Assembly: GCA_002256025.1 (NCBI GenBank)
Contig: NKIB01011400.1
Coordinates: 1 to 64,000 of the forward strand
DNA from: Asterionella formosa
Lineage: Eukaryota
Direction: 5' to 3'
Length of the DNA stretch: 64,000 bases
Each line of letters starts with the position of its first letter. Position 1 is the stretch's first letter. Below are positions 27,226 to 62,472 of the stretch, piece by piece. The translations under genes were made by a program, and so were the position numbers. The notes under the pieces are model-generated. The model worked only from the letters and a program-made list of their open reading frames with translations. It was not told the DNA's origin and did not search any database.

Positions 27226-30200
27226 ATGCCGTCGTCGTCGTCGTCGGCTGCTCTTCTGATGGATCGGCTCGTTTCAGCAAGCAGTTCAGACGATGTTCGC
27301 GAATCGTTGATGTCGATGTTGGAGAAACTCAAGCTCGGCGATGACGCGCTCTTGCCGGAGGATGTTTGGGCCGACGCTGAGCTGCTGGAAGCGATGCTGC
27401 AGCTCCTGAGCAGTGCCTCGTACAAAGCACTGCCTGTAGAAGAAGGACCAGTCTTGGTGGCGCAAATATACCTATTGCTCTTGCAAGACCGACAGGCATC
27501 CATACTCCTCAAGCAGCCGCAACCGGGTCGTCTCTTGGAAACGCTGCTCGACTGCATTGGAGACCGCAGCCAAACTAGTTACTCTCGCGTGCTTTGTCTA
27601 CAAGTCCTCACCAAGGTGTGCAACTCTAGCCCCTCGCTTGCGCAGGCGCAGCTCCTTCAAGTTCCTAACGGATTGCACCGCCTGTCGGAAGTGCTGCAAG
27701 ATGCAGACGCATCAGTCAGAAATGAAGCACTCCTGGTAGGCCGCATCATTGCGACCTGGCCATCATGTGCCAAGGTTTGGGTATTCGCCGAAGTTTGTGA
27801 CACTGTCATTTCCCTGGCGGTGGACGAGGGGGGTCTCACGGGGGCACCGGCTGTTGTGGCGGACTGCATCGAGCTTTTAAGGAACTTGCTTAGACACGAT
27901 GTCGCACTCAGTGATTTAGTGTGGCAGTCGCCCATATTTGCTCCCAAGATTAGTCAATTGTTAGATTTGCGAAAAGGAAGGGAGTGGTTGGAACCAAAAG
28001 TTACCATTTCGACGACGGATGACTTGGACGAGATTTTGCAAAGTGGAACGGAGAAGGAAGCAATTGTGATTCCGAAGCTCACTAATAAGGAAGAAGACTT
28101 ACTCACACATGTCTTGGGGTTGGTGGAGAGCTTGCTAGCGTCGGAGAATATTCGTATCAGCGTGTGGAAAAAACACATTCCTTTATCGAGTTTGATTTGG
28201 GAGCTGGCATTAATTTCGCCTCCACCACAGGGTGTTAAGTATGTTTGCGCCATGCCTTCAGCTAGCCTCCAACAGTTGGCTCTGGAGCATGTTGCGGAAG
28301 TTTGGAATTCTGTTGATAGTATGGACCGACACAATGGCCTGGACCGATTGTTGTTTATTGTATGCACCGGAGGGGCTCCAGAATCATTTTCAGACAAGCT
28401 TGGCTTGTCTCAAGCTGCTCTGCATGTTCTTCGCAAGACACTACCTCAGGACCGAGCCATGGAAATCGTGATGCATTCGCTGGCTCCGCCAATGTCACAA
28501 GACTCATTATTGGAGCAGCCTCCCACGTGCGTACAAAAATTACTCAATACGGTCATGGAAAATGTCTCATCGGGAACACAAAACTTGGAACGTCGGAAGA
28601 TCAATCTCAGTGGATCCCTTGGTGCCCTTGGTGCCTTTATGAATGACTCAACAAGCAGGGAAATGATTTTGAAAATAACATTTCACCATTCCTTAATAGA
28701 TCACATATTGGAGAGTCTAGAGTCGCAAGACGAAACGATTCAACTCAGCCTTCTTCGATTTCTTTGTGAGTGGGTGATGGACACACCTACTGTGGTCCAA
28801 AGCATATTCTCATCAACGCAATCAACTTGTCTCAGTCTATTGATATCCAAGCCTGGCAAGACCGCAACCATGACGGGGCTGTTGCTAGGTATGTGCATGG
28901 AGTACATGGTGGACGACCCTGAAAAGAATGGAGGTTGGACCCGAGAATCAATTCTCAGCATTGTCCAAAATGGCAAGGGTAGTGTGAGTGGATTTTTGAG
29001 CAGACTTGAATCTTTTAAGAAAGAGGAACTCCTTTGGAGGGCTAGTCCGTCAGAATGGAAGGGTTTCGTTCAATGGTATTCCACCCAAGTCTTGATCGTG
29101 AGGCGTCGGTTAGTACATGAATTAACTGGTAGCGGTGGTGGTGATAATGATAATGATGCTAGCGATGAAGGAGACGCTGTAGCCTTCAGCACCAAATCGC
29201 TTCAAAAACTATTGCTACAGCAGTCGAATGAGTTGGATGAGATGCGCAGCATTCTTGATGATGCGCATGCTAAGATTTCTAACCAAGAAAAGCAGATGCA
29301 GCTATGGCAGCGACGAATTGAATCCACACCAAATCAGTTAGACGAGATACTGAGCGAATTATCCTTAAAGAATCAAGAACTTGAAGCTACAGTTTCGGAG
29401 CTGCAAAGGGACATGCAGTCGAGCAATGACGCTTTTCTTACTCAGTTGAAGGCAAAAGAAGACGAAACTGCTGACCTTCAAAACCAACTAGATGCCGCTA
29501 TAGCACGGGAGCAGGATGCTCTTGCTGAACACGAAGCTCTCCGTGGAGAAATGGAAGGAATTAGTTCAGCTTACACTACACTTGAAAATGAATTCAATAG
29601 AAGCAGGGATACATTGCCAATCATGGCATCAGAGTCTCAGCAGGATGGTCGCCAACCGGAGGGCGAAGTGTCTAGCCAAGAGAATAGCTCTGAATTTGAC
29701 TCTGTCAGGGCTGAGAATGCTCGATTACGAGCAGACGCTCGTGCTGCTGATGATTGGATGCAGATGGCAGTGCAGCGAATGAATGACATTGGAGGACAGA
29801 ATGTATCCCTTCAACACGAACTTGCCATACTGAAAGAACAATTGAGCCAGGTTAGTGAGTCAACCTATTCATCAATTCAAGAGCAACTTGAACAGGAGCA
29901 GCTTCAAAAGCAGGCACTAGAAGCCAAACTGGCGTCAGAAATGGACACGGTGCAACAAGAACTAGAACAAGAAAGGAACCGCCGTCAATCTTTGGAGACC
30001 CAATTGGCCAGTGTCAATGCCGGAGAAAGTACTGCAGATGCAGCACTTCAGCAAGAGCTAGGAGTCGAAAAGATGAAACGATTATCGTTAGAATCTCAAC
30101 TAACGAATGCTCAACAAGATGTCACCGATGTAATGGAAAATCTTCAAAAGATGAAGGCTGAAAAAGAGGAACTGGCGAGAAAGGTTGAGAACATGGACAT

Positions 30201-33200
30201 GGATTTGACAATTGCGACAGCCGACGCTACGTCTCTGCGAGAAGCTCACAGGCAACTTGAGATTAAGCTGCAGGCTGCGTTGGTTGAAGGTGAGATGCCT
30301 TCGTTGGATCCACCTTCCACAGAAGAGATTGACTCACTCAGGAGCACTGTCGAATCCTTACAGGAGCAGTTGACGGATGCGCAAGCTGAACTGAAGACGG
30401 TTTTGCTACGTGAAAGGTCAGAAATAGATAGCCGCGATGAAATCATACTTGAGTTGAAAGAAAGGGAATCTATGGAACAACCGCTTCCTTCCATAATGAC
30501 CCCTTCCGGAGATTCCACTGTTAAGGCGCGAGACAACGAGATTGTCCAACTTCGCCTTGCAAACGAAGCGGCTCAGGAATGGATGTCAAAGGCTGTGGAA
30601 CACCATACAATGTTATCTGAGCAAGTAACGGCACTCTCGGATGAAAGGGATGCATTAAAAAGGGAACTCCGAGAAGTTAGGAATACAATGTCAACAATGA
30701 AAAAGAAGCGCGAAGTCGAGGTATCTATGGAAGATCATATTCAAATGGAGACTGACCTGGCTGAAAAGACTGCGGAACTGCAAGATGCCGAGCTCGAACT
30801 CGATGAATTGAAGGCGAAACTTCTGTTTGCAGAAGACGAGCTATCCGCTCAGCGCTCAATTTGCCAACTTAATCAATCCTCGTCCGATGAAGTTCGTGAT
30901 TTCAAAACGAAATTATTGGAACGCGATCAACAAATTCAACTGCTCCAAGCAGAAATCGAAAAGGGAGAAAAGGGGGACTTCTCGAAGGATGCAGTAGCCA
31001 ATCTCAAGAACGAACTGGCAGAGATGGTTGAGTTGACTTCGCAGTTGAAAAAAAAGGCATCACTTTTCGAATCAGTGCAACGTGATCTTCAGGATTCTAT
31101 GGATAGAGTGTTGGTCCTAGAGTCCGAAGTTTCTCAACTCTCAGAAGACAAGGCCACTGCACAAATGCTTCTTGACGGCGCCAGAGACGATTTACAAAAC
31201 AAAGAGCGCGAAATTTCAAATAGAATGGCTGAAGTCGAAGCTACAAAGCAGGCAACGTCGAACGAGTTATCGAACTTGAAGGCAGCTCTATCACAGCGTG
31301 AACATGACGTTTTCCAACTTCGGAACGATGTGGCAAAACATGAATGCGCTGTTGAGGACATTGAGCTATTGAAGAATGAGCTGATATCGGCTACAGATGA
31401 TAACATAAGGTTAAAAGCAGAGTTGGATTCATTGAAGTCAGGGGCAGTTTCTGTAAATGACCGAACTGAATCGTTCGAGCAGGTACAAACTGAGCTTCAA
31501 AATTTAATGAATTCTAAGTCGGCTTTGGAACAATCATGTGAGGCGAGCATGGTCGCGCTCGAGAGGATGAGATCTGATTTGATTTCGCTAAAGCAGGACA
31601 ATGAATTTTTGTCAGTGAAAGTAGACACAAGAACAACAGAAATCGAAAACCTTAAGGCGCATATTTCAGACTTGGAAACGGCGTCTTCAAATTCTCAGCA
31701 GATAGTTGCGGAGCTTGAGGCTTTCCAAGTCAGTTCCATTGTTCAGGCCCAAAGACGAGAAGACGAAATAAGCAGTCTTTCGGTTAAGGTTGAGACTTTT
31801 GAGACGGAAAACAATCTTTTGTCGGAACTGACGAAGTCGCTAGAGGACGAGAAGAAGTTGCTTGCAAAGCAGTTGCAAGACTTTTCCGACGGTGGTAAAG
31901 TCGACAATGTTGATTTGTCAAAAATGAAAGATAAAGTGTCCATTATGGAAATGGAGCTAGCAACTGTGCAATCCGAAAACCGAGAAATTGTTGAACAATG
32001 GGAGGTGAGAGTACTGGAACTCGAAGCAGGAACGAAGGAGCTCGAGGGCGAACTTGAAAAACAGCAGAAAGAAGCATCGAATGTTATCGAGCAGTGGAGT
32101 ACCCGATGTCTTGACCTTGAACAAAGAGTATCTGATTTGCAAAGTAATGCCGCGAAATGGAGACTAGAGAAGGTTGACCTACAGACAAAGTTGGATGAAG
32201 CACGACAAGACGGAATTGGCCTGGTCGAAAGCCTTCAATCTAAACTGCAACTAAGAGATGATGAAATCGTTAGCCTTGGTGATAAGTACAAAGCAGACAC
32301 CGAAATTCTGAAAGTCCAACTTGAAGAAATGAATAAAAAAGTAAATGATTACGAATGGAAAGTTGAATCTTACACACAAGAATCAACGCATCTGGCAAAG
32401 AAACTTGCGGAATCCGAACAATGTCTGGTTTTGTCGTCAGATACTTTGCAAAATCGTATCAACGAACTGAATTCGCAACTGCAAGCTGAAAGGGACCAAG
32501 GCATAAGGTCGTGTGACACGCTTCAAATGCGCATAAAGGAGCTGGAGAGTGCATTCGAAATTGTTACAAGTGAACACAAATCAAATCTTGCCAAATGGGA
32601 GGAAGAACGGGAATCATTTTCAGACCAGGCCTCATCACTTTCACAGCAGAACGAAGCATGTCGAATTGAGATAGAGAAACTTCGCCAGCTGCTTGATGAC
32701 AAAGTTGTCAACAACGATGATACTCTAACCCAGTGGGAGACGAAAATTGCTGAACTCGATAGCGAGGCCTCTAGTCTTCGGTATCAATTGGAACAACAGC
32801 AGGAAGAAGCTGGAATTGTAATTGATCAATGGGAGAATCACTCATCGGACCTTGAAGTGCGAAACTCAACTTTGGAGTTAGAGGTTGAAACTCTCAAGGA
32901 CGAACTTTGCAGAGCAAGGGCTGACCTTAAATCAGCCGAGGATGAGTTTCGATCCCAGCTGGAACATGTCGTCCAGACCAATAATTCTTTACTTCAGAAA
33001 CATGTCGACGATATCGCAACAGAGTCAGAAGAGGTCATTAAACAGTGGCAAGAACGTGTGTCTGAGTTGGAAGATGTTGTCGCCGAGCTCGAAAGGCAAC
33101 TCGAAAAACAGCAAATGGAAGCAATGGATGCTATTTCAGAGTGGCAAGATACCTGCTCAAATCTTGAAAATGAAAATCTTGAGACGAAGAAAGATTATTC

Positions 33201-35469
33201 TGCTCTCTCACAGACACTGATCACGGCGCTCAAGTTTGAGATCGAAAGCAAGGAAGGCATGTTGTCATCGTTTTTAGAAGGTTATGAAAGGACGCACGTG
33301 GATGTACAGGAAAACTCTCCTGCCTCAATAATGGACGCGCTCAAGTTTGCAATGGTTGAAACTGATCAGTTAATAGCTCAGGTTGTAGATGGCCTTGTCA
33401 GCGAGCGCGAGGCACATTTATCTGCAATTGAAAAACTGGGCGAACAAATCGAGCAAAAGGATGTTATCAACAAGACTCTACAGACCGAGCTAATTATTGT
33501 TAAGGAAAGCATGATTGACCAAAATAAACATGATAGTGAAATTGCTGTTCTTCAGCAGCATGTCGAAGAAAGCCAAAACGAACTTATAAGTTTAAGGGCT
33601 CTTCTCGACAAGGAGAAAATGGCTGTTGCTTCATTTGAGAAAAAATTGTCGGTATTAGAAGTTACTAACGAGGCCAAGCGTGAGCTGGAAATTCGCCTGG
33701 ACAATGATAAGACCTTGATTCATACATTCAAGGCTAACTTGGATGCATCTCGAGCTAAGCAAATGGATCTTGAGTCAGAATTGTTGAGACAAGAATCAGC
33801 ATTAGCTGACTCAAACCTCGCCCTATCGAAGGCGATTGCTGCGTTAGAGAAATCAGAAACGACCCTATCGGATTCCAGGTCAGAATGTGTAGATCTTGAA
33901 AGAATAGTTGAAGAGCTACAAGGAGAGCTAGAAGCTGCCAATAATTCTCTTCCAGGTCAGATAACAGACGAGATCTCAGAGCGAGCTACTGAAATGGCTA
34001 CTCAGGCTCTTCGCGAACAACTTCTTGCAATGCAAGATCAACTCGAGGGCGATCGGGAAAGGCTCCAGAGCGAAAAGGAAGCTAGGAAGGCTGCACAGGA
34101 AGAGGCTGCACGCCTGAAATCCGATCTCGCAGTTCTTTTGCGGGCGGAAGACGCACCTGATCGACTCAGCAGTTTGATGATGAGTGCTGTAGACGAAATC
34201 CAAGGTAACGAGCGACGTGAAATCGATGAGCTTCGCAAGACTCTCGAACGAGTAATGCAAGATTTGGTTACAGCAAGACTTTCTGAAAAGTCTGCCTCCG
34301 AAATTGCGGCATCGTCACGGTTACAAGCAACATTGTTTGAGCAGGAAGTTATAGATGCCAAGGCTGATATTGCCTCCTTGACCGACATGATTGACGAAAT
34401 GCGTCAAACCGAATCCGGACGAATCGCATCCTTTGAGTATCGCATCACTGCTCTCGAAGACGACAGAGAAACATTGCGACGTTTTCACGCCGATGAACTT
34501 GAGAATGTTCGCAACGAACTGTATCATCTTAGTATGGAGAAAGATCGTGTCCTTCAGGCTCTCAAGGACAGTGAGAAAACCAATGCTGCTCTACTTTATA
34601 CGACAACAAGGGAGCACGAGGCGGTAGGTCCTGACTCAAGTTCAGAAGCGGAATTAGCCAAGCTTCGTGTTTCTCATGCTCAGCTACTAGCAGCTGTTTC
34701 CGAAGAGGGATCACGCACTGAGCGCCGAATCAAAGAGGCCATGGCTGCAAGTGCTGCATCAATCGAAGCTGATGTGATTGTTGAGAGGGAGCTTCGCTTT
34801 GCGGCCGAAAAAGCGTTGGAGATAATGAGGGTTCAAGTGGAGAACATGCGACAACCTAAATCACCAAGAGCGTTACCGTCCAACGAGATCGACAGACTTT
34901 CTAGTCAGTTGAAGCAAGCAAAAGCCGACACCAAGAAGCTAGTTGTCCAGTTATCCACAATGCGTCGTGAATATGAATCTTTCAAGGCAGAGTCCAAGGC
35001 TGCCATAGACGATCTAGCCGAGAAGTATCGAAAGGCTCAGGCCAAGGCTCGCAAACTTGAGAGGGAGGGTCAGCTGGACTCTGAAGTCAACCTTGAGGCT
35101 GCTCGACTTCGCAGCACGCACAGTCGTGGTTGTCAAAACGATGACAATTGGCTGGTCGCCCAAGATTCAACAGTGGAAGAGGAGAAAAAGGATATGTATG
35201 GGCACCAGTCATTGATGTCACCATCAGCAGCATTTGATTACATCCAGCAGCAAAAAGCGGCAATTCATGAAGAGCGCCAAATGTATCAAGAACTCCTTGC
35301 CGAACATGATGATTTACTGGCCCTTCTTGCACAGCACGATTTAGAAAAGGCGAGTCTCCATGCTGCCCTGTTAGATGCAGCTGGGTCGGATGCTGTTGAG
35401 GCAGCCATTCAAGAAGCAGAAGTTAACGCTGTTAAGCAGTTTGGACGCTACATCCAGTTACAACAGTAA
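27226..35469 (+). CDS. USO1: Uso1/p115-like vesicle tethering factor (armadillo-like head plus very long coiled coil)
   Basis: 2747 aa intronless ORF. Head motifs PNGLHRLSEVLQD...VRNEALL, EGGL...VVADCIELLRNLLR and GLLLGMC. Heptad-rich middle. C-terminal EHDDLLALLAQHDLEK resembles the Uso1/p115 C-terminal motif. Confidence 0.8.
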   Translation: MPSSSSSAALLMDRLVSASSSDDVRESLMSMLEKLKLGDDALLPEDVWADAELLEAMLQLLSSASYKALPVEEGPVLVAQIYLLLLQDRQASILLKQPQPGRLLETLLDCIGDRSQTSYSRVLCLQVLTKVCNSSPSLAQAQLLQVPNGLHRLSEVLQDADASVRNEALLVGRIIATWPSCAKVWVFAEVCDTVISLAVDEGGLTGAPAVVADCIELLRNLLRHDVALSDLVWQSPIFAPKISQLLDLRKGREWLEPKVTISTTDDLDEILQSGTEKEAIVIPKLTNKEEDLLTHVLGLVESLLASENIRISVWKKHIPLSSLIWELALISPPPQGVKYVCAMPSASLQQLALEHVAEVWNSVDSMDRHNGLDRLLFIVCTGGAPESFSDKLGLSQAALHVLRKTLPQDRAMEIVMHSLAPPMSQDSLLEQPPTCVQKLLNTVMENVSSGTQNLERRKINLSGSLGALGAFMNDSTSREMILKITFHHSLIDHILESLESQDETIQLSLLRFLCEWVMDTPTVVQSIFSSTQSTCLSLLISKPGKTATMTGLLLGMCMEYMVDDPEKNGGWTRESILSIVQNGKGSVSGFLSRLESFKKEELLWRASPSEWKGFVQWYSTQVLIVRRRLVHELTGSGGGDNDNDASDEGDAVAFSTKSLQKLLLQQSNELDEMRSILDDAHAKISNQEKQMQLWQRRIESTPNQLDEILSELSLKNQELEATVSELQRDMQSSNDAFLTQLKAKEDETADLQNQLDAAIAREQDALAEHEALRGEMEGISSAYTTLENEFNRSRDTLPIMASESQQDGRQPEGEVSSQENSSEFDSVRAENARLRADARAADDWMQMAVQRMNDIGGQNVSLQHELAILKEQLSQVSESTYSSIQEQLEQEQLQKQALEAKLASEMDTVQQELEQERNRRQSLETQLASVNAGESTADAALQQELGVEKMKRLSLESQLTNAQQDVTDVMENLQKMKAEKEELARKVENMDMDLTIATADATSLREAHRQLEIKLQAALVEGEMPSLDPPSTEEIDSLRSTVESLQEQLTDAQAELKTVLLRERSEIDSRDEIILELKERESMEQPLPSIMTPSGDSTVKARDNEIVQLRLANEAAQEWMSKAVEHHTMLSEQVTALSDERDALKRELREVRNTMSTMKKKREVEVSMEDHIQMETDLAEKTAELQDAELELDELKAKLLFAEDELSAQRSICQLNQSSSDEVRDFKTKLLERDQQIQLLQAEIEKGEKGDFSKDAVANLKNELAEMVELTSQLKKKASLFESVQRDLQDSMDRVLVLESEVSQLSEDKATAQMLLDGARDDLQNKEREISNRMAEVEATKQATSNELSNLKAALSQREHDVFQLRNDVAKHECAVEDIELLKNELISATDDNIRLKAELDSLKSGAVSVNDRTESFEQVQTELQNLMNSKSALEQSCEASMVALERMRSDLISLKQDNEFLSVKVDTRTTEIENLKAHISDLETASSNSQQIVAELEAFQVSSIVQAQRREDEISSLSVKVETFETENNLLSELTKSLEDEKKLLAKQLQDFSDGGKVDNVDLSKMKDKVSIMEMELATVQSENREIVEQWEVRVLELEAGTKELEGELEKQQKEASNVIEQWSTRCLDLEQRVSDLQSNAAKWRLEKVDLQTKLDEARQDGIGLVESLQSKLQLRDDEIVSLGDKYKADTEILKVQLEEMNKKVNDYEWKVESYTQESTHLAKKLAESEQCLVLSSDTLQNRINELNSQLQAERDQGIRSCDTLQMRIKELESAFEIVTSEHKSNLAKWEEERESFSDQASSLSQQNEACRIEIEKLRQLLDDKVVNNDDTLTQWETKIAELDSEASSLRYQLEQQQEEAGIVIDQWENHSSDLEVRNSTLELEVETLKDELCRARADLKSAEDEFRSQLEHVVQTNNSLLQKHVDDIATESEEVIKQWQERVSELEDVVAELERQLEKQQMEAMDAISEWQDTCSNLENENLETKKDYSALSQTLITALKFEIESKEGMLSSFLEGYERTHVDVQENSPASIMDALKFAMVETDQLIAQVVDGLVSEREAHLSAIEKLGEQIEQKDVINKTLQTELIIVKESMIDQNKHDSEIAVLQQHVEESQNELISLRALLDKEKMAVASFEKKLSVLEVTNEAKRELEIRLDNDKTLIHTFKANLDASRAKQMDLESELLRQESALADSNLALSKAIAALEKSETTLSDSRSECVDLERIVEELQGELEAANNSLPGQITDEISERATEMATQALREQLLAMQDQLEGDRERLQSEKEARKAAQEEAARLKSDLAVLLRAEDAPDRLSSLMMSAVDEIQGNERREIDELRKTLERVMQDLVTARLSEKSASEIAASSRLQATLFEQEVIDAKADIASLTDMIDEMRQTESGRIASFEYRITALEDDRETLRRFHADELENVRNELYHLSMEKDRVLQALKDSEKTNAALLYTTTREHEAVGPDSSSEAELAKLRVSHAQLLAAVSEEGSRTERRIKEAMAASAASIEADVIVERELRFAAEKALEIMRVQVENMRQPKSPRALPSNEIDRLSSQLKQAKADTKKLVVQLSTMRREYESFKAESKAAIDDLAEKYRKAQAKARKLEREGQLDSEVNLEAARLRSTHSRGCQNDDNWLVAQDSTVEEEKKDMYGHQSLMSPSAAFDYIQQQKAAIHEERQMYQELLAEHDDLLALLAQHDLEKASLHAALLDAAGSDAVEAAIQEAEVNAVKQFGRYIQLQQ

Positions 35470-51690: not shown

Positions 51691-53659
51691 CCGAATTTCC
51701 CTCTCAGGTTTAAGAATAGATATCCTCCCAGGGTACAGAGAAGGTATTAGTTGCCTGAATGTTGTCCCATTTCGTGTTAGGATCACAACGCAAAGAATGA
51801 CGCAATTTACTGCAGTATGATTTGAGACCACCATTGAAATGGGAGGACAACAAATGTTCGGGATAAAATTTGGTTTTGGCCATGCAAATGTAACCTTTAA
51901 AAGGAAGAATGGCCGAGATAGAATAATTGAGCAAATCAGCAACTAAATATATATTTCAATCTCAGGGAGTTTTCAACATTCCACATGTTTTAAAATTATC
52001 CATACTTATCTCTTTTCTTGATGATAATCTGAAATTTGGACATCAGAAATTAAAAAGCCTCAGAAAATACCAAAATTCCTCATTCTGCTTTGCGAGCTTG
52101 CGAGCAATACCCATCACTCATCATTTTGGTAAATCGGCAGGTAGATATATTCTCCCGAATAATGCCATTGATAGAATTATTTTGCAAACTGATTATCCTT
52201 AAATAATGTCATCTCAGGGATTGTTGAACATTCGAAATGCTTTACAAGGATATTCTCCCAATTCTCGATATCAGAATTATCTGCTTTTCAGATTATATTT
52301 TGATGTATTACGCAGCTAATATTTAGCTAGAATAACCTTACTGACGTGAAAAAATATATGTGAAACAGCTACAAAGTTTGAACGAAGTGCCAGCATCATA
52401 ACACTTGATGAATCAGTTGATGGGAAGGAAGTACAGGCTTATACCAACAAATCAAGTCATGTATTTTGTTGACGTTGAATCTGCTTGGATTGGATGTTTA
52501 AAAATTGAACAAAATGTCTCGATTATTAGTTTTTTAACCCCGCTTAAAATTCGCTTGTTATCCAACAGAATGCATTGCTTTTTTAAGAAACGACTGAAAA
52601 GAGCTTACTCATTGTTGGAAACCGCGATTTTGGCAAAGCTCAAGGCTCATGCAAGTTTGTTGCAAGTGTGTAGTGTCATGTTGTAAGTTTTAAGGACCGG
52701 GAGTCATCGGGTATGTGACATAATTTGATGTTCTTGATGCGACAAAAATAAATGTCATGTCAGAAGTTGTGGTAGGGTTCTACAATCACAAAGAAATCCA
52801 ATTGGAGATAAACAGCTGAAGGGAAGATTTGCATGTTAGGATGATCGAAAATCTTGTCCATGGTCAAGTCTTGTGTGGCTCCATTATTCTTCAGAAACGC
52901 GTTCATGGTCGTTCTTTATTTGCGTCCGCTGAATCCATAATGATTTCCATGCAAGTCACTCAGCTAAGAAATGTGTTTTCAATGCCAATTGACATAAGTC
53001 ACCTGCAGACATTGTCAGTTTGGTTAAACCACCATTAGAGTTCATGCAACACCAAATTCTTCTTGTTTGTGCTCAATATCCGTGCTGTCATTGTGGCACT
53101 TACTTACTTGACAATTGGCGAAAATGGTACTAAGTGATGCGTGCCATGAAAAAATTTAACCAGTGTCAAACATTATAGCATGCATCGAATGCTGCCACAA
53201 AAAGCACTACCTATATATAATAAGCAGAGCAATTCCTCAAGCTCCTCGAAACAAGTTCATCCCAACTGATTCTTCATTCACCATCAAGCCAGAGTTACTT
53301 AACATGGATTTTTGGCCCCTATTACAACAGGACAGTGCTAGTTGGCGCCATTGTCCAACATCCATCCTTATGGTCTACATGGGCTGCTGTTGCCCGTGTT
53401 AGTTAGCACTCAGCTTGCATATTATCCAATGTGAGCCATGATCAATCCAAATATTATATTATTAGTTTCATGATTGTTCGTTTAATGGCTTGTTATATAT
53501 TATTACAGGACTCAAACCAAAGGAGTTGAAGGTCTAGCATGTGGTTCATCACTGGTGTCCTTTTTTGTGTTTGTTTTCGACCATTCATCTTGCCATTCAA
53601 AAAAATGACCATATATGGCTTGTTGTGTGACATTGCGCCACCCCAAGGAATAGATAGGA

Positions 53660-56245
53660 GCACAAAGGAGATCGCCCTATTCACACAGAAATGCAAAGGT
53701 ATTTGCAAGAGCTGCGGCAAACAAGGGCACAAGGCCGACGTGTGGTGCCGATAGAAAACAGAAAACAAATACAAGCGGAATGAACAATGCAAACGGGACA
53801 AACGCAAGAAATGAGATTAAGTGCTATAATTGCAACATACATGTCGGGCATATTGCAAGGGACTGTCCGGAACCAAAACGCGCAGGGCGCGGTGAGAAGA
53901 AAAAAGAATCCGGCACATACGTTGTAATGTGCGAGGAGATAATGGAGGAGGTGACGACAGCCACCACGGACGTAATGAATGCTAGTACCGGAACTCCTAG
54001 TATGCATGTGGTTTGTTCCTACAATGGAAGACAAGTGGTACGAAGGCCAACATTGCGCATCAAGTAACGGCACGGAGCGCTGGCTTGCGGACACTGGGGC
54101 TACCACGCACATCACTATGAGTGACGAATACATGACAAACGTCGAAAACGTCAACATCTCGGTCATTGTTGGTGATGGCAAAGAGGTGGTATGCACGAAA
54201 TGAGGTGATATTCTAATTACCAACAAAACGTGGTGCTCAATGTCGTTACTACGCAAGGTACCAGGTACTACTCTACTACACTCCACACTTCCACAAGAAT
54301 ATCGTAAGCATCGGGCGATTTGTTAAGAACAGAGGGTGCGAGGCACGCATGAAGGGGTCCGAGTTGAGTCTTCATAAGGAATGCAGGATAAGACAACGAA
54401 CTCACCTTTTCTTGTGAGGATCAAGGCGTCCTTTACTACTTCAAGGGAAAACGTTTCCTACAAGAATCCGAAACGGTCTTGTCTATCCACGACTCGACAA
54501 TTAACCCTCCACCCAATCTTAGGTACTCCAAAGATTACCAAGACAGTGATGCAACCTCCTAAGCCAAAGACTACCAAGAAACCTAGCTACTACGCAAATG
54601 GACATCAACGATGAGGCCCATGACAAATACGGCCACATCAGCGAGGCATCCCTTCGCGCAACGCTAAAGTCCCTCGGTATTGAACTTACGGGCAAGATTC
54701 AGTCGTGTGAAGCTGCGCACTAGCTAAGTAAGGCAAAGGCCAAAGCGGTACCTAAAGTCACGACCCTCAAGCAGGCCTCTACTCCTGCTGAATTGTACAT
54801 GGACATGATTTCAGGTCCCTACAAGAAATCTCTAATTGGAAGCAACCACTGGATCCTATTTGTGAATCAGTACACAGGCAAGGCATGGAGTTATTTCGTT
54901 TACAAGAACAAGAGTGCAAAAAAAATGTCGCGGATGCCCTACTGATTACACTCAAGTGAGCGGGCTATGTAGTACGCTTCCTAGGCTACGTTGCGACAAT
55001 GCCGGTGAAAACATGACCAGTCTAAGTATCGTCTGCACCACGCAGGGTATTCAGATTTTTTCATCAACAGAACGGAGTCGTGGAACAAAAATTTGTGACA
55101 ATACAAGACTGAGCAAGCATGCGCCGCCCTCCACACGCAACTAACGAACTCTGTCACTAACTCAAATACGGAAAAATGCCCCAACTGGCTTATCTACGGT
55201 TTTCAGCCTAAGATTTATCATCGCCTGATTCAGTTTGGAAGGGTGGGGTGGGCCACAATTCGGACGCTGAGGCAGAAATTATCAAATGTGTCATGCTTGG
55301 CTACAGTCATGACCACGCCAGTGATTTCTACCGCATGTACAATATGGCCACGAAAAAGGTCTTCAACACAAGGGATCTTAAATGGGCCGACTGGCATGGA
55401 AATATCAAACCAACAGCGGACATGATGGACGAATTCACCACAGACGGATCCGGTATAGATGAGAAATTCGACACTCCTACTAAACCTACCAACGCAATCT
55501 CTCCTGACAAACATGGGGCCAATATACTACTACCAACGAAACCAGACAATCCCAGTACTCCCAAGAGAGTGAGCTTTGCAGATTCCGTTGCAGCTGGTAT
55601 GAATACGAACGAGCATCGCTTGTACGAATTATGCTACGAAATCTACCAAGCTCGATCGAGAAATGAATAGGCTATCTACTCCAGGCTTTGTGGCCTCGCC
55701 TACGCCTACTCATGCAGGCACACGGCAGCAATCATCCGCAGCACGCACGCTAATACTGGATGACGATACCAACGAAAACCTCGAAGAGCACCAATCTAGT
55801 AGTGAGGAAGCTCATTCAACGAGCCTAGTTTCTGACCCACTCAAACCCAAGAGCTACAAGCAGGCACTATTAAGCAACGAAAAAGACGAATGGACAAAGG
55901 CAATCGAAGCTGAGATTGAAAACTTCTACTCCCGCAAAGTGTGGAAACTAATCCTCGGAAGAACCTAAATTGACAAAAGCCACTTGGAGCAAAATGAGTA
56001 TTTAAGAAAAAGAACGAGCACGACAACACTACGCGCTACAAGGGTTGTATTGTGGTAAAAGGCTATCATGTGCAGATATCAGATGTCGACTTCACAGATT
56101 CATTTGCACCTGTTGTTACGTATACTGGCCTACGTAGTATTGTGTTTGCAATCACCCAATGCAGGAAAATTTGTATTTGAAATTGTGGACATCGAAGCGG
56201 CATTCCTCAAAGCCAACCTCGACGAAGAAATCTAGTACATAGAAT
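53660..56245 (+). mobile_element. Decayed Ty1/copia LTR retrotransposon, internal gag-pol region
   Basis: Domains appear in copia order across many stops and frameshifts: two zinc knuckles (CKSCGKQGHKAD, CYNC..HVGHIARDC), protease WLADTGATTHIT, pre-integrase HDKYGHISE, integrase (LRCDNAGEN, CVMLGYSHDHASDFYRMYN), and RT (PKSYKQAL..EWTKAIEAEIENF..KVWKL, DIEAAFLKANLDEEI). Confidence 0.9.
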
Positions 56246-56421
56246 TGTTGAGGGGAAGAACCTTATCGTGAATAAAAGTGAGTTACAATATAATCATGAC
56301 TACTATTCTATTGCTATCATGAGTGCATTCTTATTAGCACTCACGCATGTATCTAATCTGGTGGTTACACCGGTATGGTTCTTACGTCGCTCGTATGGAA
56401 TGCCATACATAGATATTAACA
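56246..56421 (-). mobile_element. Putative 176 bp 3' LTR of a second, opposite-strand copia element inserted into the RT of the first
   Basis: Bounded by TGTTG...TTAACA. On the minus strand it is preceded by a purine-rich GAGGGTG immediately before TGTTAAT. The host RT homology stops exactly at 56245. Confidence 0.55.
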
Positions 56422-57600
56422 CACCCTCACCAGCAGATTCAGGTAGAATAGTGGGAAGAGAAAGGGGAGCAGCAGCAGAGGCCAAGCAAGCATAGTAGTT
56501 AGAGGGACCAGGGAGGGAAGGAGGACAGCCAATGGAGATAGCAAGCAAGGGCGCATCAAAGTATGATGGGAAGCAGGATGATGCTTAGAACGTCTATGAA
56601 TAAAATTTCCATTAGATCTAACGTTTTACTCAGCATATTTAAAAAAGTTATTTATTAAGCTAAATTTGTATTATATTGATAATAATTTTGATATCATATC
56701 AGCAACTTTTTCTGTGTGATCACCAATCAAATTCACATCTCAGGTCATAATCATACACATGTCACGTTATCTGGTGGTTACACCGGTATGGTTCTTACGT
56801 CGCTTGTATGGAATGCCATACGTACATATTAACACACCCTCACCAGCAGATTCAGGTAGAATAGTGGGAAGAGAAAGGGGAGCAGCAGCAGAGGCCAAGC
56901 AAGCATAGTAGTTAGAGGGACCAGGGAGGGAAGGAGGACAGCCAATGGAGAGATAGAAAGCAAGGGCGCATCAAAGTATGATGGGAAGCAGGATGATGCT
57001 TAGAACGTCTATGAATAAAATTTCCATTAGATCTAACGTTTTACTCAGCATATTTAAAAAAGTTATTTATTAAGCTAAATTTGTATTATATTGATAATAA
57101 TTTTGATATCATTTCAACAACTTTTTCTGTGTGATCACCAATCAAATTCACATCTCAGGTCATAATCGTACACATGTCACGTTGTCTGGTGGTTACACCG
57201 GTATGGTTCTTACGTCGCTTGTATGGAATGCCATACGTACATATTAACACACCCTCACCAGCAGATTCAGGTAGAATAGTGGGAAGAGAAAGGGGAGCAG
57301 CAGCAGAAGCCAAGCAAGCATAGTAGTTGGAGGGACCAGGGAGGGAAGGAGGACAGCCAATGGAGACGATAGCAAGCAAGGGCGCATCAAAGTATGATGG
57401 GAAGCAGGATGATGCTTAGAACGTCTATGAATAAAATTTCCATTAGATCTAACGTTTTACTCAGCATATTTAAAAAAGTTATTTATTAAGCTAAATTTGT
57501 ATTATATTGATAATAATTTTGATATCATATCAGCAACTTTTTCTGTGTGATCACCAATCAAATTCACATCTCAGGTCATAATCGTACACATCTCACGTTG
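56357..57600 (+). repeat. Tandem array of three ~413-416 bp near-identical units
   Basis: Units start TCTGGTGGTTACACCGGTATGG at 56357, 56770 and 57185, and differ by only a few substitutions and small indels. Confidence 0.95.
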
Positions 57601-57886
57601 TGCGTATGTAAAAACTTGCTTGTTTATCTTATGTACCAAAACTTATTGATCAAGCGAAACTTTTGTTATACAGTATCGAGTGAATTTTTGATTGATCAAA
57701 AACTTTTGATCTTTGATCAATTCAATTTATATTGAAGGTTATCACTTATGCACACGTCACGGATGAGAACGTAGAAGCTTGTACTACCTGATAATTGCAT
57801 ACTGATTTTTTTGTACCAGCTCCTTCTTGCTATTCGCACATTAACAATCATCCTTAGCTGGTACCTGGTACCAGGGTACCATCGAC

Positions 57887-58084
57887 ATTGCTGAAGGCAA
57901 TAAACGCCCGAGGTGGTCTCATGCCTGCGAGTATACATGTGTTCGAGGCTGGGTGGCGCGAGTAGGTTGACAATACGAGTGGCGCCCGCACTGCGAGAAG
58001 GTCACCCTACGAGTGCCATCCCAGCCGAGTACACATGTGAACGAGAAGGCATGTAGCCACCGAGCAGGGTATTACTGAGGCAAT
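57887..58084 (+). other. ~200 bp fold-back element with periodic CGAG/CGAG (tandem G.A) internal loops
   Basis: Ten CGAG motifs at 57909, 57928, 57944, 57959, 57976 | 57994, 58010, 58026, 58042, 58061, arranged mirror-symmetrically. The intervening segments are reverse-complementary across the axis. Confidence 0.8.
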
Positions 58085-59334
58085 TCACAAACAACCTATC
58101 GTCGTGCCATTCGCTTACCTACTGCCCACTCATCGAGTGTAAATATCAATTTTAGTAGCTCGCTATAGCCCATCATATAAAATATATTTCGTTTATTTCC
58201 TATCTTCACATCGACATTTGCAATGGGTCCGATATTGCCCATCATTAAAATATATTTTTTATATTTTCTATCTTCGCATTTTGGAATTACAATTTGTAGC
58301 AATTGCCCCTCGGTTGTGCAGCCCTGGGATTGCCGAAATTGGCAAGAAGGCTACTTAAGGAAACCATTTTATATACTCTTCAGATTTTAATAATTTTTAT
58401 CTAGAATTCACCTCATTTTTGTTCGTCTCCTGAAAAGTGGACTCCGGCAATTCACCTTTCACCATGCCGATCATTGTCCATCATCATTACCGGTTTGAAG
58501 CGAAATCAGTTCAGGGATGACGCCAGTAGCGATTCTTTGTCTAACGGATGCGTTTGGTTGTTGGATTGCTTGTCTTCTCGAGGGATTCATGTAGTCGCAT
58601 CGTCCATATTTCGTCGGACGAGCGATGATAGCGATACATTTGATGTTGGTGGCAAGTTTTTGCTCTGGTCATGCATGTGATGATGCTTTACGGAAATTCT
58701 TCCGGTAGTCATCTAGCCTACATACGTACGTGGTACTGAAAACAACCAAGCATGGTTTAAGCTAAACTTTAACGCTTACTTTGACACGTTATAATATTAT
58801 CGCTGTAGACTCGGTATTATCTTTAAGAGACCAGAATGTTAAATTGGATCGTTCAAGTATTGATTGATTTTACGTACCGAATGACCGATTTCGTCCTCAC
58901 AATTATAATTCTCACTCTATCCTGCCTGCCGTTGCTCAATTTGGGCTTGCAACAGGAACTTTCGACTTTTTTATGAGCCCATCGTCTGCTGTGTGTTACG
59001 CGTGTTAGAGCGGATCGGTGAGTACAACAGTGAAAAACTGAATGTGATCGTAGATACAAAATTGTCGAAGTTCCGATTTGATTGCTTCCATCGTCGTTGT
59101 CGTTCCACACTGTCATTTTTTGTTTCGATTGTATCTATCTACATAAGAGCCAATGTATTTATCGATGACTACTCTTTGACGACATATTGTTGTTGATCGT
59201 ATTTGTTCATGTGTATAGTTGTTTACCATGATGTCAATCTTGCCTCAAAGCAATACTTTTCTTGTACTAACGCACTTTGCTACATTTATACTACGAGTTC
59301 GTATCACAAGCTACATAAATACTCGAAGATTGGT

Positions 59335-59640
59335 AGCAGCTTCACTTTTGATGAAGCCCACTTTACCTCTTCCAAACGCCCTCCTGGGCCTCAATTTCTC
59401 TTTGACCTTCTTGGTCTCCACCAATCTACTATCCTGGAGCCCCATACTGAGCCATTGTCCACAACCATTGCTGCTGTTGCCCCTGAACCACCCTTTCTTA
59501 TGTGTGCACCTATGATTCCTCCACTCCGTGCAGGTGCTTTTCCCCTAGTACCCTTTGGTAAAAACTTCACACCTCCTCCTTCCAATGCCTTCCTTCTTCC
59601 TTCTCCTGCTGGTGATCATCCTACTCAGCTAGAGAGAGTC
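59335..59640 (+). pseudogene. Probable copia-type retrotransposon fragment (post-integrase region)
   Basis: FDEAHFTSSKRPPGPQFLFDLLG followed by a Pro-rich linker resembles the region after the integrase of copia elements. Recognised by eye. Confidence 0.4.
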
Positions 59641-60054
59641 AATAGTGCTGGTGCAGCGTGCTGTCGATCACGTTTGCTCAGAATGGAATGATCAGGGTTG
59701 CTTGTTTGGTGGCCGGAGGAATGATGACTGTGGCGAAAATACGACTGCTAATGGTGTCAGGCTACTACAGCGATGCGCATGGTTGCAGCAACCAGACCAT
59801 TTACACTACATAACGACGCAGGTCTAAATTGGGTTCAGCATTTTTTCTTCTTCTTTCGGTCTTCGATTGTGTGGTGATGGAAAGTCAAGCAATGTTGCCT
59901 GTGTAAGTACTACTACAATGATTCACAATGCATGCGTCTCCATTGAAACTCCTATTTTTTACTTCATTTCTATCCCAAAACAATTTTTTCTATTTCTTAT
60001 TTGATGCAGCTTATTACATCGCATTTCATACTTTGGTTGCTCCAAACATGGCAG

Positions 60055-60245
60055 TATAGCCACGGAGGGTGGCTTCGGGGTTGGTTGCACAATAATTGAA
60101 AAGTTGCGTAATGGCAGTTAATGTGGCCATAGTTGCTGGGGGTGGCTTGTTGTATGGCCAATGTACCGAGGGGGGCAGCATAGTGCAATCAATAGCACGG
60201 GCATAATAGAGGAGGGTACCAAGAACTTCCTGCACACGTGCGTTT
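60055..60245 (-). pseudogene. Ty1/copia reverse transcriptase C-terminal fragment
   Basis: VQEVLGTLLYYARAIDCTML..LGTLAIQQA...ITQLFNYCATNPEATLR, assembled across frameshifts, matches the copia GxLLYYARAVD / QLLxY.ATHP.A region. Confidence 0.75.
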
Positions 60246-62472
60246 TTTATCAAGGAGGTAGAGGACAGATGTGACATCCTCGGGAATGACAAATTGCTGG
60301 CGCACGCCATATTGCGGTCTATTCCAGGCAAGATTTCAGGGTACTGTTTAATAAAAATTTTCCACGGATGATACTTAGGAAAGTGTAGGCCTCTGTGCTG
60401 CCATGAATTGAATCACCAACATGCATGTGTGCCATGCATAAGACACTTTCCTTGCCTCTCACCTTGTGCTTGTATGAGCTAACTGGACCCAGTAAATATT
60501 GATCATGAGTCTTGATTCCTGTTCAGAAAAAACTGAGTGGAGTGAGTAATTGGAGGAAAGACCAGCAGTATTGTTTGGATGAAAGATCAGTAGCCCAAAC
60601 AATAAAATCGGATTTACTGTATTTTCCGTAAAGTTGGTTTTGATTAAACCAACTGAGACAGAGAATAAGCTCACAGATAAAATCCATATCCACACATTTT
60701 CATTGGAAATAGTAAACTTACTCAAAACCGTACAAATGAAATGATTCAATATCAATTGGAAGTAACGCATACGATAAATGCACATATCTCCAAATGTACT
60801 GTCAAAGTAAACCTTCCGTTCCTTAGTACTTCTTGAAGATAGAAAATCAGTTTGTCTATGAGAAAGGTCTTCAACACCATTCAATCCTTCAATTCGGTAG
60901 TTTCGTCCTTAATGGCAAGAGCAATTTCAGGATAGCGTTTCATCAAGAAGGTGAGGCACAATCTTACAAACCAATTACTGCATGGACTTCTTGATATTCC
61001 AAAACTACTTGGTGCACATGTTTGAGCAGGATGTTTGTAAGACTGTAAGGATCATGAAAGTCATCATGCTGAATAACTTCATCGAAAACAAGGTTATTCA
61101 AGGAGAATTTATGTGTATAGGAATCTTACCTGCATGTTACAAAATTTTCTAGTATGAAATAATTCACCAACTACTTCGGTTACATGAGAGGATGTTATCG
61201 ATGCAACGATATCCTTTCGTATTGGTATAGACAGTAGTGGCAAGGCTGGAATCACGGTATAAACTAATAGAAGAGATGTTCAGCGCAATTTTGCGTTCCA
61301 AGAGGGCATTCTTATTATGAAGTTGTTGAACATTGAACAACAATGCACGGAAAATGATGCTTCTGTTTAATCAATGTCTCATGACTAGCTACTAAAGACG
61401 GAATTGTGCAATATACTTGTTTCGTTCGTCATCTGATGCAAGATGTAACTCTATAATATTTGTCTTCGGATTATCGGTGACTGGTGCATCCTCATTTCTT
61501 CCTTGAATGATGGTTGGATAGAAAGGCGGCATCTTCATGCTACCATGAGTCGACAGAAATGAAATAACATCTTCGTCAGAATCTGGTTCTTGGTGATGAG
61601 GGCGTTCCCTTTCTGCAGATGATTTATTATGAGCATAGTTTTCATATGCATGACTTGCATTGTCAGACAGTTTCGTTAACAATGTAACCTACTGTATTTT
61701 GTCTTTGACATGACTGGTAAGCTTTTTTCCCAGAATTGTCATCATGATTGCTGTTTCATAGTAGCCTACTAGCTCTTTTGAGATTTGTTCTCACCAAAAC
61801 GTTTACCAGTTCGTTTTGTTTCCTTTTTTGACATGATGATAACGAAGTAGGAGTAGAATGAATGTAGATGTTTCAAAATCAAAGCTTGAAACTATATCTA
61901 CCGGTACCGGTATATTACTTCCATTTCTGGCTGCCAACAATAAAAGTTACCGGGTAGTAGGTGTGTTAGCTAGCTAGGTCTTGTACTAAAATTATTAATG
62001 GATCATTCATTTACGTTTCTTACTTCGAAGATGTAATCTGATTACATAACAATATAGATATGTTATGTCTCGATTATGATCAAACTCATATCATGTCAAT
62101 ATTGATCATTCATTCTATTACCGGTATATCTTGAATACTGGTGACGTACTACTGTACTGTCCATATCATGTAAGTACCAGTATACATTATGTACCGGTGG
62201 TACTACCAATGACACTTATTTATGTACTATTCCTTACCAGGGATAGGTTTTTCCAAGTCTTGAAAAGTTTATCTTTCATTCATACTTTTATGATATTGAA
62301 TGTTCCTTTGAAATAGGTTATTGACATTCATAAATTTAAATGATTCATAAATTAAGTTTTGGAAATTTTTATAAATGATTGCGAAATTGATAAAAGTACC
62401 CATATTTCACACAACCTGATGATGAAATGAAGATCGACAGCCTCCTATCGAACTAACCTGAAAGCGCAGGCT

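Follow-up and report, generated by a model that had tools for sequence, protein, structure and literature searches.

The long hairpin located at positions 57887..58084 of the 64,000-nt stretch of Asterionella formosa DNA analysed here (the window) is tentatively interpreted, with a probability of roughly four in ten, as the terminal palindrome of a high-copy, non-autonomous mobile element of this freshwater diatom, resembling the Helitron2/Helentron group. Read on the + strand, the family to which the hairpin belongs consists of the word ATTGC, a laddered hairpin of ~190 nt, an inverted repeat of 24-27 nt, a body of ~2 kb, a segment designated S, the partner of the inverted repeat and a final ATTGC. 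The whole repeat, roughly 2.1-2.4 kb long, is non-coding and is capped by the hairpin at one end.

In eukaryotes, little is understood of the terminal hairpins of rolling-circle and other single-strand transposons, which are short, and both the strand that is handled and the setting of termination are still argued from a few model elements. The present family offers an extreme and easily assayed case, with a 190-nt end palindrome in which all the non-Watson-Crick steps are of the Py-GA-Pu form, a far-end repeat that could dock at the hairpin base, and a joined-ends form that occurs naturally. Should the ladder indeed set strand choice, it would offer a case, open to testing, of strand selection coded by structure in a non-bacterial system. 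A Helitron-like affiliation would also extend this biology to the diatoms, for which surveys of transposable elements mostly report copia-type elements. Moreover, the hairpin could serve as a diagnostic marker for annotating an abundant repeat in freshwater diatom genomes and metagenomes, where it is a likely cause of contig breaks.

The Terminal Palindrome and its CGAG Ladder

The palindrome extends over 198 nt on the + strand (57887..58084), as delimited by scans, folding and comparison of copies, and contains ten CGAG words starting at 57909, 57928, 57944, 57959, 57976, 57994, 58010, 58026, 58042 and 58061, with spacings of 19, 16, 15 and 17 nt on one arm, 18 nt across the axis, and 16, 16, 16 and 19 nt on the other arm. 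CTCG does not occur in 57887-58084, the nearest one being found at 58159. The ladder, its spacings and the long inverted repeat had been claimed in a sequence-only reading of this DNA, made from the letters without database searches, and were reproduced to the base. The pattern CGAG-N11-15-CGAG-N11-15-CGAG has eight matches in the 64-kb window, all of them at the hairpin, against 0.04 expected, and a count of eight was reached in none of 100 shuffles. The palindrome and its same-strand CGAG ladder are real, far beyond chance.

The hairpin comprises six Py-GA-Pu/Py-GA-Pu steps, i.e., five CGAG/CGAG steps and an outer TGAA (57892)/TGAG (58075) step, separated by helices of 11-15 bp whose spacers pair across the axis, and an ATTGC/GCAAT stem closes its base. 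The Py-G-A-Pu context is that in which tandem sheared G.A pairs are stable. The outer TGAA/TGAG pair had been described as a decayed sixth rung inside the ATTGC/GCAAT stem; its presence is confirmed but its decay is not, since this step lies in the conserved terminus of all three copies available as DNA (the window copy and the metagenome loci L017 and L042 presented below) and keeps the Py-GA-Pu form in each of them, which is not obviously decay. In the family consensus, all 12 step positions are Py-GA-Pu on one strand, in both arms, including the TGAG variant of L042, and this uniformity, together with the eight pattern matches, agrees with the earlier view that the ladder does not result from the random decay of a palindrome. 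The hairpins of L017 and L042 possess a clean apex, GCGCC-CCC-GGCGC, and arms that match better than those of the window copy, whose apex shows a 3-nt deletion relative to both. CpG-type transitions affect the CGAG steps of decayed copies, giving TGAG in L042 (DNA) and CTTG in the stray ORF translations P0005 and P0008 (as deduced from codons), so that the ladder is a property of the family consensus and not of every copy.

Related Copies and the Hairpin-Side Terminus

Contigs of four public runs were mapped on 57650-59200 at a likeness of at least 80%, and their depth was summed in bins. In the DNA run X2, the summed depth amounts to 215-417 over 57650-57857, rises to 87,775 over 57858-57909 and 234,487 over 57910-57961, and remains at tens to hundreds of thousands out to 59200; the DNA run X3 gives 9-17, 2,250 and 5,351 for the same three intervals. 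The jump in contig depth, at least 200-fold, falls at 57887, contig pieces start at 57887-57892, and the depth is continuous across 58084. The public runs containing this stretch are freshwater or algal metagenomes. As a side observation, the left arm exceeds the body in summed depth in the poly-A run X18, in which 93% of the mapped contigs continue into unlike sequence, and the unique flank has zero cover in the RNA run X15, which was not used as evidence; because contig depth cannot rank the parts of a gene, no claim of expression is made.

A scan of metagenome contigs with the ladder pattern returned 31 loci, two of which (L017 and L042) are related to the window copy, the remaining 29 being chance matches in G+C-rich DNA. 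L017 and L042 share 91.5% identity, and each of them is 87-88% identical to 57887-58642. All three copies diverge from one another exactly left of ATTGC (57887..57891, + strand), the outermost five bases of the element, which form their common boundary. The viral contigs yielded 16 loci with the CGAG-ladder pattern, none of them related, exact-word scans of genome contigs and viral contigs with hairpin and S words gave 0 matches, and no second copy of the hairpin unit occurs within the 64-kb window. The search for further copies that had been recommended thus produced L017, L042 and about 60 stray ORF translations, and the hairpin is not a single-copy sequence, although most of this copy evidence is peptide-level and derives from metagenome contigs possibly mis-assembled across the palindrome. 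Similarly, the ends of the element could be defined as had been proposed, the hairpin edge at 57887 being a terminus common to many copies according to both the depth jump and the boundary with L017 and L042. Of seven copies, two (P0004 and P0008) show variation in the outer two bases of the left ATTGC, compared to about 3/40 for the word at the right end, both being small numbers. Deletion variants with a short hairpin are common (contig joints; P0009 and P0033).

The Far End, the Inverted Repeats and the Joined Form

The far end was characterised by tracing copies via stray ORF translations in a protein collection and mapping them back to L017 by tblastn. A + strand ORF running across the unit end, S and ATTGC matched 54 proteins, and a - strand ORF across the hairpin matched six. 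In reverse-complemented L017, positions 1-191 correspond to window positions 59859-60049 and are followed by S (237 nt), then by ATTGC, the hairpin and the body. Along this sequence, 29 tblastn alignments end at 430-434, directly after ...GCGGGAATTGC, and the terminal peptide ...SGNC (DNA ...GGGAATTGC) is present in 40 of the 59 stray ORFs (P0005-P0063). Beyond this peptide, L017's own ORF runs into the hairpin, three ORFs stop at once or one residue on, six exhibit an L-initial tail (four with recognisable reversed-hairpin peptides), and 30 continue into sequence unlike the hairpin, a few of them sharing a flank pairwise. The first flank codon after the peptide starts with G in 0 of 38 cases. 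Since the ORFs diverge into unlike flanks after ...GCGGGAATTGC, this position corresponds to a true terminus.

In L017, the 27 nt that precede ATTGC and the 27 nt that follow the hairpin form a pair of inverted repeats, identical at 22 of 27 positions once one of them is reverse-complemented; these repeats abut the hairpin on both sides. The inner one, a subterminal inverted repeat located just inside the hairpin (58080..58106, + strand), reads GCAAT TCCCGCTCTAGCTATCGTC... in L017 and is an inverted copy of the far terminus. The window copy shows no such match at three or fewer mismatches, and has therefore diverged in this region. The stem of L017 continues straight through the inverted repeat. 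Ends joined head to tail through a single ATTGC occur in L017 (DNA) and in P0006 (peptide level). A reversed hairpin beyond the S end is recognisable in P0005, P0007, P0028, P0033, P0035 and P0058, and possible in P0046 and P0060; a mirror-image long terminal inverted repeat (TIR), recombination between the 27-nt repeats, or mis-assembly fits these ORFs better than a model with one hairpin. If these reversed hairpins are real, inversion of the hairpin might also be involved.

The same features bear on a second interpretation, a foldback or long-TIR cut-and-paste DNA transposon, in which the hairpin would represent a TIR-derived, MITE-like module placed outside one true TIR, sometimes both, and the CGAG ladder, if relevant, would serve for cruciform formation or transposase recognition on double-stranded DNA. 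A true pair of inverted repeats does exist, and the start of the left arm in L017 and L042 (GCAATACACGCCCGAG, replaced by GCAATAAACG... in the window copy) shares 12 of 16 positions with the inner repeat GCAATTCCCGCTCTAG; the frequent short-hairpin deletion variants and the at most eight ORFs with a reversed hairpin outside the other repeat, disposed as in a mirror-image long TIR, are also consistent with such a transposon. However, 30 of 40 right ends stop at ATTGC without a hairpin whereas left ends keep theirs, so that the ends are asymmetric in most copies, and the common form is bounded by direct, not inverted, termini (ATTGC...ATTGC). The one copy for which two flanks are available, itself truncated, shows no target-site duplication, and recognition of double-stranded DNA would leave unexplained both the twelve purine-purine mismatches borne by the same strand and the 10:3 bias of wobble pairs described below. 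A foldback or long-TIR transposon is thus regarded as unlikely.

Folding, Strand Asymmetry and Covariation

The 198 nt fold as one long hairpin on either strand. With RNA parameters, the window hairpin reaches -99.3 kcal/mol on the + strand (z -7.8) and -86.6 kcal/mol on the - strand (z -6.4), and the strands differ more widely in L017 (-113.5 and -85.8 kcal/mol, respectively) and L042 (-111.6 and -85.4 kcal/mol). With DNA parameters, the window hairpin gives -45.1 kcal/mol (+) and -42.2 kcal/mol (-), and the 266-nt junction of L017, which forms one stem, gives -76.6 kcal/mol on the + strand (z -9.8) versus -69.5 on the other strand; these gaps of 3 kcal/mol and 7 kcal/mol, respectively, are small, in a parameter set which may not credit tandem G.A pairs. 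The proposal that the structure folds on one strand only is thus upheld in part: a bias towards the + strand is clear with RNA parameters, but both strands fold and the gap is only 3-7 kcal/mol with DNA parameters. The better-preserved copies fold better and more asymmetrically. The numbers of G.U pairs on the + and - strands are 5 and 6 in the window copy, 9 and 2 in L017, and 10 and 3 in L042; in the latter two the wobbles, like the twelve G.A/A.G positions, also lie on the CGAG strand.

Among the 75 consensus pairs compared in the three DNA copies, one is compensatory (A-U in the window, U-A in L017 and L042), five show one-sided compatible changes and seven are broken, five of these seven in the window copy. 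Covariation is thin because the copies are closely related. The expectation that stems would co-vary while the CGAG steps stay fixed found no confirmation, with a single compensatory pair among three copies and steps that mutate in decayed ones.

The enrichment in G.U pairs suits RNA at least as well as DNA. The selected molecule might be an RNA, in which case an inward transcript of the element end would take the shape of a 200-nt rod containing six tandem G.A loops as well as G.U pairs, and would act as a cis element bound by protein or as the precursor of small RNAs. In addition to the 9-10 G.U pairs on the + strand versus 2-3 on the - strand, and to the gap of 26-28 kcal/mol found for L017 and L042 with RNA parameters, the hairpin is covered by contigs of two RNA libraries (X15 and the poly-A run X18, whose record 9 spans 57889-58137), but neither the strand nor the ends of a transcript can be read from such contigs, and DNA can be present in RNA libraries. 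Rfam offers weak matches to generic miRNA-precursor hairpins only (E about 2), the best one in 57700-58700 being mir-941 (19.7 bits versus a gathering score of 60, E 1.9), and no family reaches the threshold: at gathering score the window gives 0 matches, miRNA precursors and self-cleaving ribozymes included. Moreover, the hairpin coincides with the terminus of a mobile element and has its pairing partner at the far terminus, which points to a role in DNA mobility and renders a selected RNA rather unlikely. Ribozyme, snoRNA and k-turn ideas were rejected, as Rfam lends them no support.

Element Body, Window Copy and Neighbourhood

The non-coding body of the element occupies 58085..60049 (+ strand), with a high contig depth to at least 59200 and a protein match, P0002, that maps to 58887-59815. 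Near the hairpin end it contains internal tandem repeats of ~68-69 bp (58161..58300, + strand; repeat families D1, D2 and D5), and further on a fragment of ~330 bp corresponding to the C-terminus of a copia-type integrase (59326..59654, + strand), which shares 91% identity with P0001 (PF25597) between 59326 and 59598. The match of P0002 runs from 58887 to 59340 and resumes at 59626-59815, skipping most of this fragment, a captured piece that the window copy carries and that is absent from the copy behind P0002. The window copy ends at 60049, where its similarity to L017 stops, and is devoid of the last ~240 nt (S and the terminal inverted repeat) present in L017.

Directly beyond this point, a copia-like pol ORF fragment (60050..60412, - strand) is broken exactly at the element boundary; its nearest Atlas clusters are from diatoms, and a match to RVT_2 represents a weak lead only. 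On the opposite side, the left flank carries GGTACCW repeats 10 nt from the terminus (57858..57878, + strand), which also occur in the flank of L042 and, as VPGT/GTRYQ peptides, in the flanks of several further copies. A decayed copia-like gag/integrase/RT region lies at about 53.5-56.3 kb (+ strand), followed by three copies of a 415-bp tandem repeat (56357-57601). The surroundings of the hairpin are gene-poor and consist of broken repeats. The window is that of an intron-poor eukaryote, with long ORFs for eIF3c, exportin-T, kinesin, ankyrin-HDAC and others, and a tRNA scan of it found 0 genes. Pfam searches on small ORFs of 58400-61700 gave nothing significant, and no ORF for Rep/Hel or another transposase occurs within the 64-kb window; the ORF and Pfam searches agree with the earlier statement that no cognate enzyme is visible there.

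Possible Mode of Action

A Helitron2/Helentron-like element of this kind would move via a single-stranded or joined-ends intermediate, once both of its ends have been cut beside ATTGC by a trans-encoded enzyme, whose nick position and class are likewise presumed. On the CGAG strand, the terminal 198 nt would form a rod, with six sheared G.A/A.G steps and 9-10 G.T(U) wobbles taking the place of Watson-Crick pairs, whereas the complementary strand would exhibit C.T/T.C and A.C mismatches at the corresponding positions; the two strands should thus be structurally distinguishable. The far-end inverted repeat would pair with the stretch just inside the hairpin, thereby lengthening the stem and bringing the ATTGC-flanked ends side by side, in an alignment that would resemble the joined form of L017. 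The ladder may stabilise one strand, but it may equally mark the other strand by pyrimidine bubbles. Following the Helitron2 convention, in which the palindrome is 3'-terminal, the transferred strand would be the CTCG strand, while the variability of the left ATTGC and the stability argument favour the CGAG strand, whose 5' end would then bear the hairpin.

The sequence-only reading had envisaged a non-autonomous mobile element. This part is borne out by a terminus common to many copies, and the layout of the ends is of the HUH/rolling-circle type; the folded species may be single-stranded DNA or RNA, and an HUH enzyme or a tyrosine recombinase may act on it. A more specific and doubtful expectation is that of a eukaryotic element moving in the form of one folded strand, the choice of strand being encoded structurally by the periodic G.A/A.G ladder. 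In such an element, a sheared step would occur every ~1.5 helical turns, one strand would form a stable 200-nt rod while its complement would be bubbled, and the far-end repeat would dock at the base of the rod, aligning the two cut sites.

Another candidate process is the Crypton-like integration of a circular form by a tyrosine recombinase, through a short ATTGC core and with the palindrome as attachment site. The 5-nt direct repeats found at both ends, the joined form with one ATTGC, and the outer bases of the left ATTGC, which vary in two of seven copies as expected for a target-derived half-core, are compatible with such an integration, and terminal short direct repeats are important for Crypton transposition according to PMC3627910. 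Cryptons, however, are without inverted repeats whereas the diatom family possesses a pair of 24-27 nt, the flanks diverge right after ATTGC and not after a common overlap region, and no recombinase was seen, all of which makes a Crypton quite improbable. Finally, a functionless decaying palindrome whose ladder is a by-product of mutation or repair bias is scarcely credible, for although individual copies do decay (five of the seven broken pairs in the window copy; CpG-type step transitions in L042 and, from codons, in P0005 and P0008), all 12 consensus steps are Py-GA-Pu on the same strand, the pattern count of eight far exceeds the expected 0.04, and the better-kept copies fold better and more asymmetrically.

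Comparison with Known Systems

IS200/IS605 elements (HUH Y1) are bacterial, lack inverted repeats and carry at each end a hairpin of ~20-30 nt, the two lying on the same strand. The diatom element resembles them by its imperfect end hairpin, the constant short word by its ends, the lack of an evident duplication and a strand-specific logic, but differs by one giant hairpin, a pair of inverted repeats and a eukaryotic host. The terminal hairpins of IS200/IS605 are mentioned in PMC3627910. An IS200/IS605-like HUH element was rejected, with no significant fold at the other end of L017 and an inverted-repeat pair present. In the integron attC sites and the folded attP of filamentous phages, one folded DNA strand works and strand choice is made via non-Watson-Crick features; these are sites of 60-150 nt used by bacterial tyrosine recombinases and distinguished by extrahelical bases. 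To our knowledge, a periodic G.A ladder occurs in none of them, and no recombinase is linked to the diatom hairpin.

Hairpins derived from foldback elements or MITEs also have arms composed of short modules, often undergo internal deletions that leave the hairpin intact, and give hairpin RNA on read-through. However, their arms are true complements whereas the module boundaries of the diatom hairpin read alike 5'-3' on both arms, and the latter caps a 2-kb unit instead of being free-standing. A MITE or foldback as the whole element was discarded, the hairpin continuing into the same body in all three DNA copies, with continuous depth across 58084. Other identities were considered and set aside. 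A long terminal repeat (LTR) delimited by TG...CA ends (57889-60048), with L017 read as LTR, 237-nt internal region and LTR, failed because the S end meets unlike flanks in 30 of 40 ORFs and no direct repeats occur in the window; no PBS- or PPT-like sequence was evident by eye in L017. A minus-strand LINE with a 3' hairpin disagrees with a terminus devoid of a tail and with the inverted repeat at the far end. A parvovirus- or poxvirus-like hairpin telomere with flip/flop is a lead only, because repeat recombination, a mirror-image TIR or mis-assembly explains the reversed hairpins equally.

The closest resemblance is to the Helitron2/Helentron group. In PMC3627910, Helitron2 elements are described with short asymmetric terminal inverted repeats, the 5' one located 0-2 bp from the end and the 3' one subterminal, directly upstream of a hairpin, and also with a 5' hairpin; pairing of the two repeats was suggested by Bao and Jurka to set the end point of rolling-circle replication (PMC3627910). 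The Helentron-derived HINE/DINE of Thomas et al. (PMC4067079) are non-coding and high-copy, with subterminal inverted repeats (subTIRs), a 3' palindrome and internal tandem repeats, and joined ends and tandem copies in Helitrons were reported by Chellapan et al. (PMC5148889). The diatom family likewise has one terminal inverted repeat and another that is subterminal, with the terminal palindrome directly after it. The asymmetric repeats are found as the 22/27-nt match of L017 and the 29 alignments ending at 430-434, and the terminal palindrome is recovered by folding, at ~190 nt. As in HINE/DINE-1, the repeat is non-coding and of high copy number, with internal tandem repeats and a captured gene fragment, and its joined-end or head-to-tail forms recall those of Helitrons (PMC5148889).

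Differences concern size, end sequence and structure. Published Helitron2/Helentron palindromes measure 5-20 bp (5-10 bp in PMC4067079) versus ~190 nt in the diatom and the inverted repeats of Helitron2 8-15 nt (PMC3627910) versus 24-27 nt, a two- to tenfold excess in length, and Helitron2/Helentron elements insert without duplication at a T-rich target, TT or TTTT^T/C, whereas the diatom ends exhibit no T-run and a constant ATTGC on both sides. A 5' hairpin of the Helitron2 type was not found at the non-hairpin end of L017, the one copy inspected, in 60- and 100-nt segments of both strands, whose folds relative to shuffles gave z values of +0.80, +0.41, +0.11 and -0.04. Unlike the palindromes of Helitron2/Helentron, that of the diatom is a ladder of six tandem G.A steps. 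A limited literature search found no description of Helitron-like elements in diatoms or of a G.A-laddered terminal hairpin, and within that search the periodic G.A ladder in a terminal palindrome is unprecedented. The asymmetric-end layout is nevertheless that of the Helitron2/Helentron (HINE/DINE) rolling-circle elements. Should the diatom element indeed move as a folded strand, it would represent a diatom counterpart of the strand selectivity of attC and IS608-type systems, operated by a Helitron2-like or still unclassified enzyme.

Shortened Hairpins, and Hairpin Pieces in a Poly-A RNA Library

In many copies of the element, a high-copy non-coding repeat capped by the CGAG-laddered palindrome (57887-58084, + strand), the hairpin occurs in a shortened form that has lost the inner modules and retains outer ones that still pair, as seen in the contig alignments and in P0009 and P0033, two stray ORF translations of such copies. 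These deletions, exemplified by the joining of 57947 to about 58070, tend toward symmetry about the apex. In the public poly-A RNA library X18, 38 contigs were aligned to positions 57650-59200 with at least 80% likeness, and 93% of the aligned portion continues into unlike sequence; pieces of the hairpin therefore lie inside many different transcripts or contigs.

Open Reading Frames and Annotation

The uninterrupted ORF of 2747 aa located at 27226-35469 (+) is devoid of any Pfam family at E ≤ 0.001. In P0012, the source's protein for L017, a metagenome contig harboring another copy of the element, the TGA within ATTGCTGAAGG is translated as W. The gene calling of L017 was therefore evidently performed with a TGA=W code, an annotation artefact on eukaryotic DNA.

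Sequences Within and Around the Element

Two decayed copia-like fragments of opposite orientations lie on either side of the window copy (57887-60049). The one at 53500-56300 (+) carries a gag zinc knuckle together with an SH3-like piece of integrase and the beginning of RT; the other, at 60050-60412 (-), is a post-RT stretch broken exactly at the element boundary 60049/60050. Within the copy itself, a copia integrase C-terminal fragment (59326-59654, +), sharing 91% protein identity with the copia-integrase match P0001, is absent from the copy behind the ORF translation P0002, and represents either a captured gene fragment or a later insertion. Directly 3' of the truncated copia-like RT, and some 290 nt ahead of the hairpin, stands a tandem repeat of three 415-bp units (56357-57601, 97% matches). 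The contig depth is low at 57650-57857, just past this repeat, so the sequence flanking it on the right, at least, is not high-copy.

Allowing at most one mismatch, GGTACCWGGTACC occurs seven times in the window, versus 0.01 expected (12210, 12217, 22778, 42056, 46376, 54257 and 57860), the majority of these sites being located between ORFs, frequently with other GGTAC words around them. The motif also flanks several copies of the element, including those of the window and of the metagenome contig L042, and the VPGT/GTRYQ peptides of the translations P0015, P0016, P0019, P0020, P0029 and P0037 correspond to this motif in the copy flanks. In this diatom it may serve as an intergenic signal and as a favoured landing zone.
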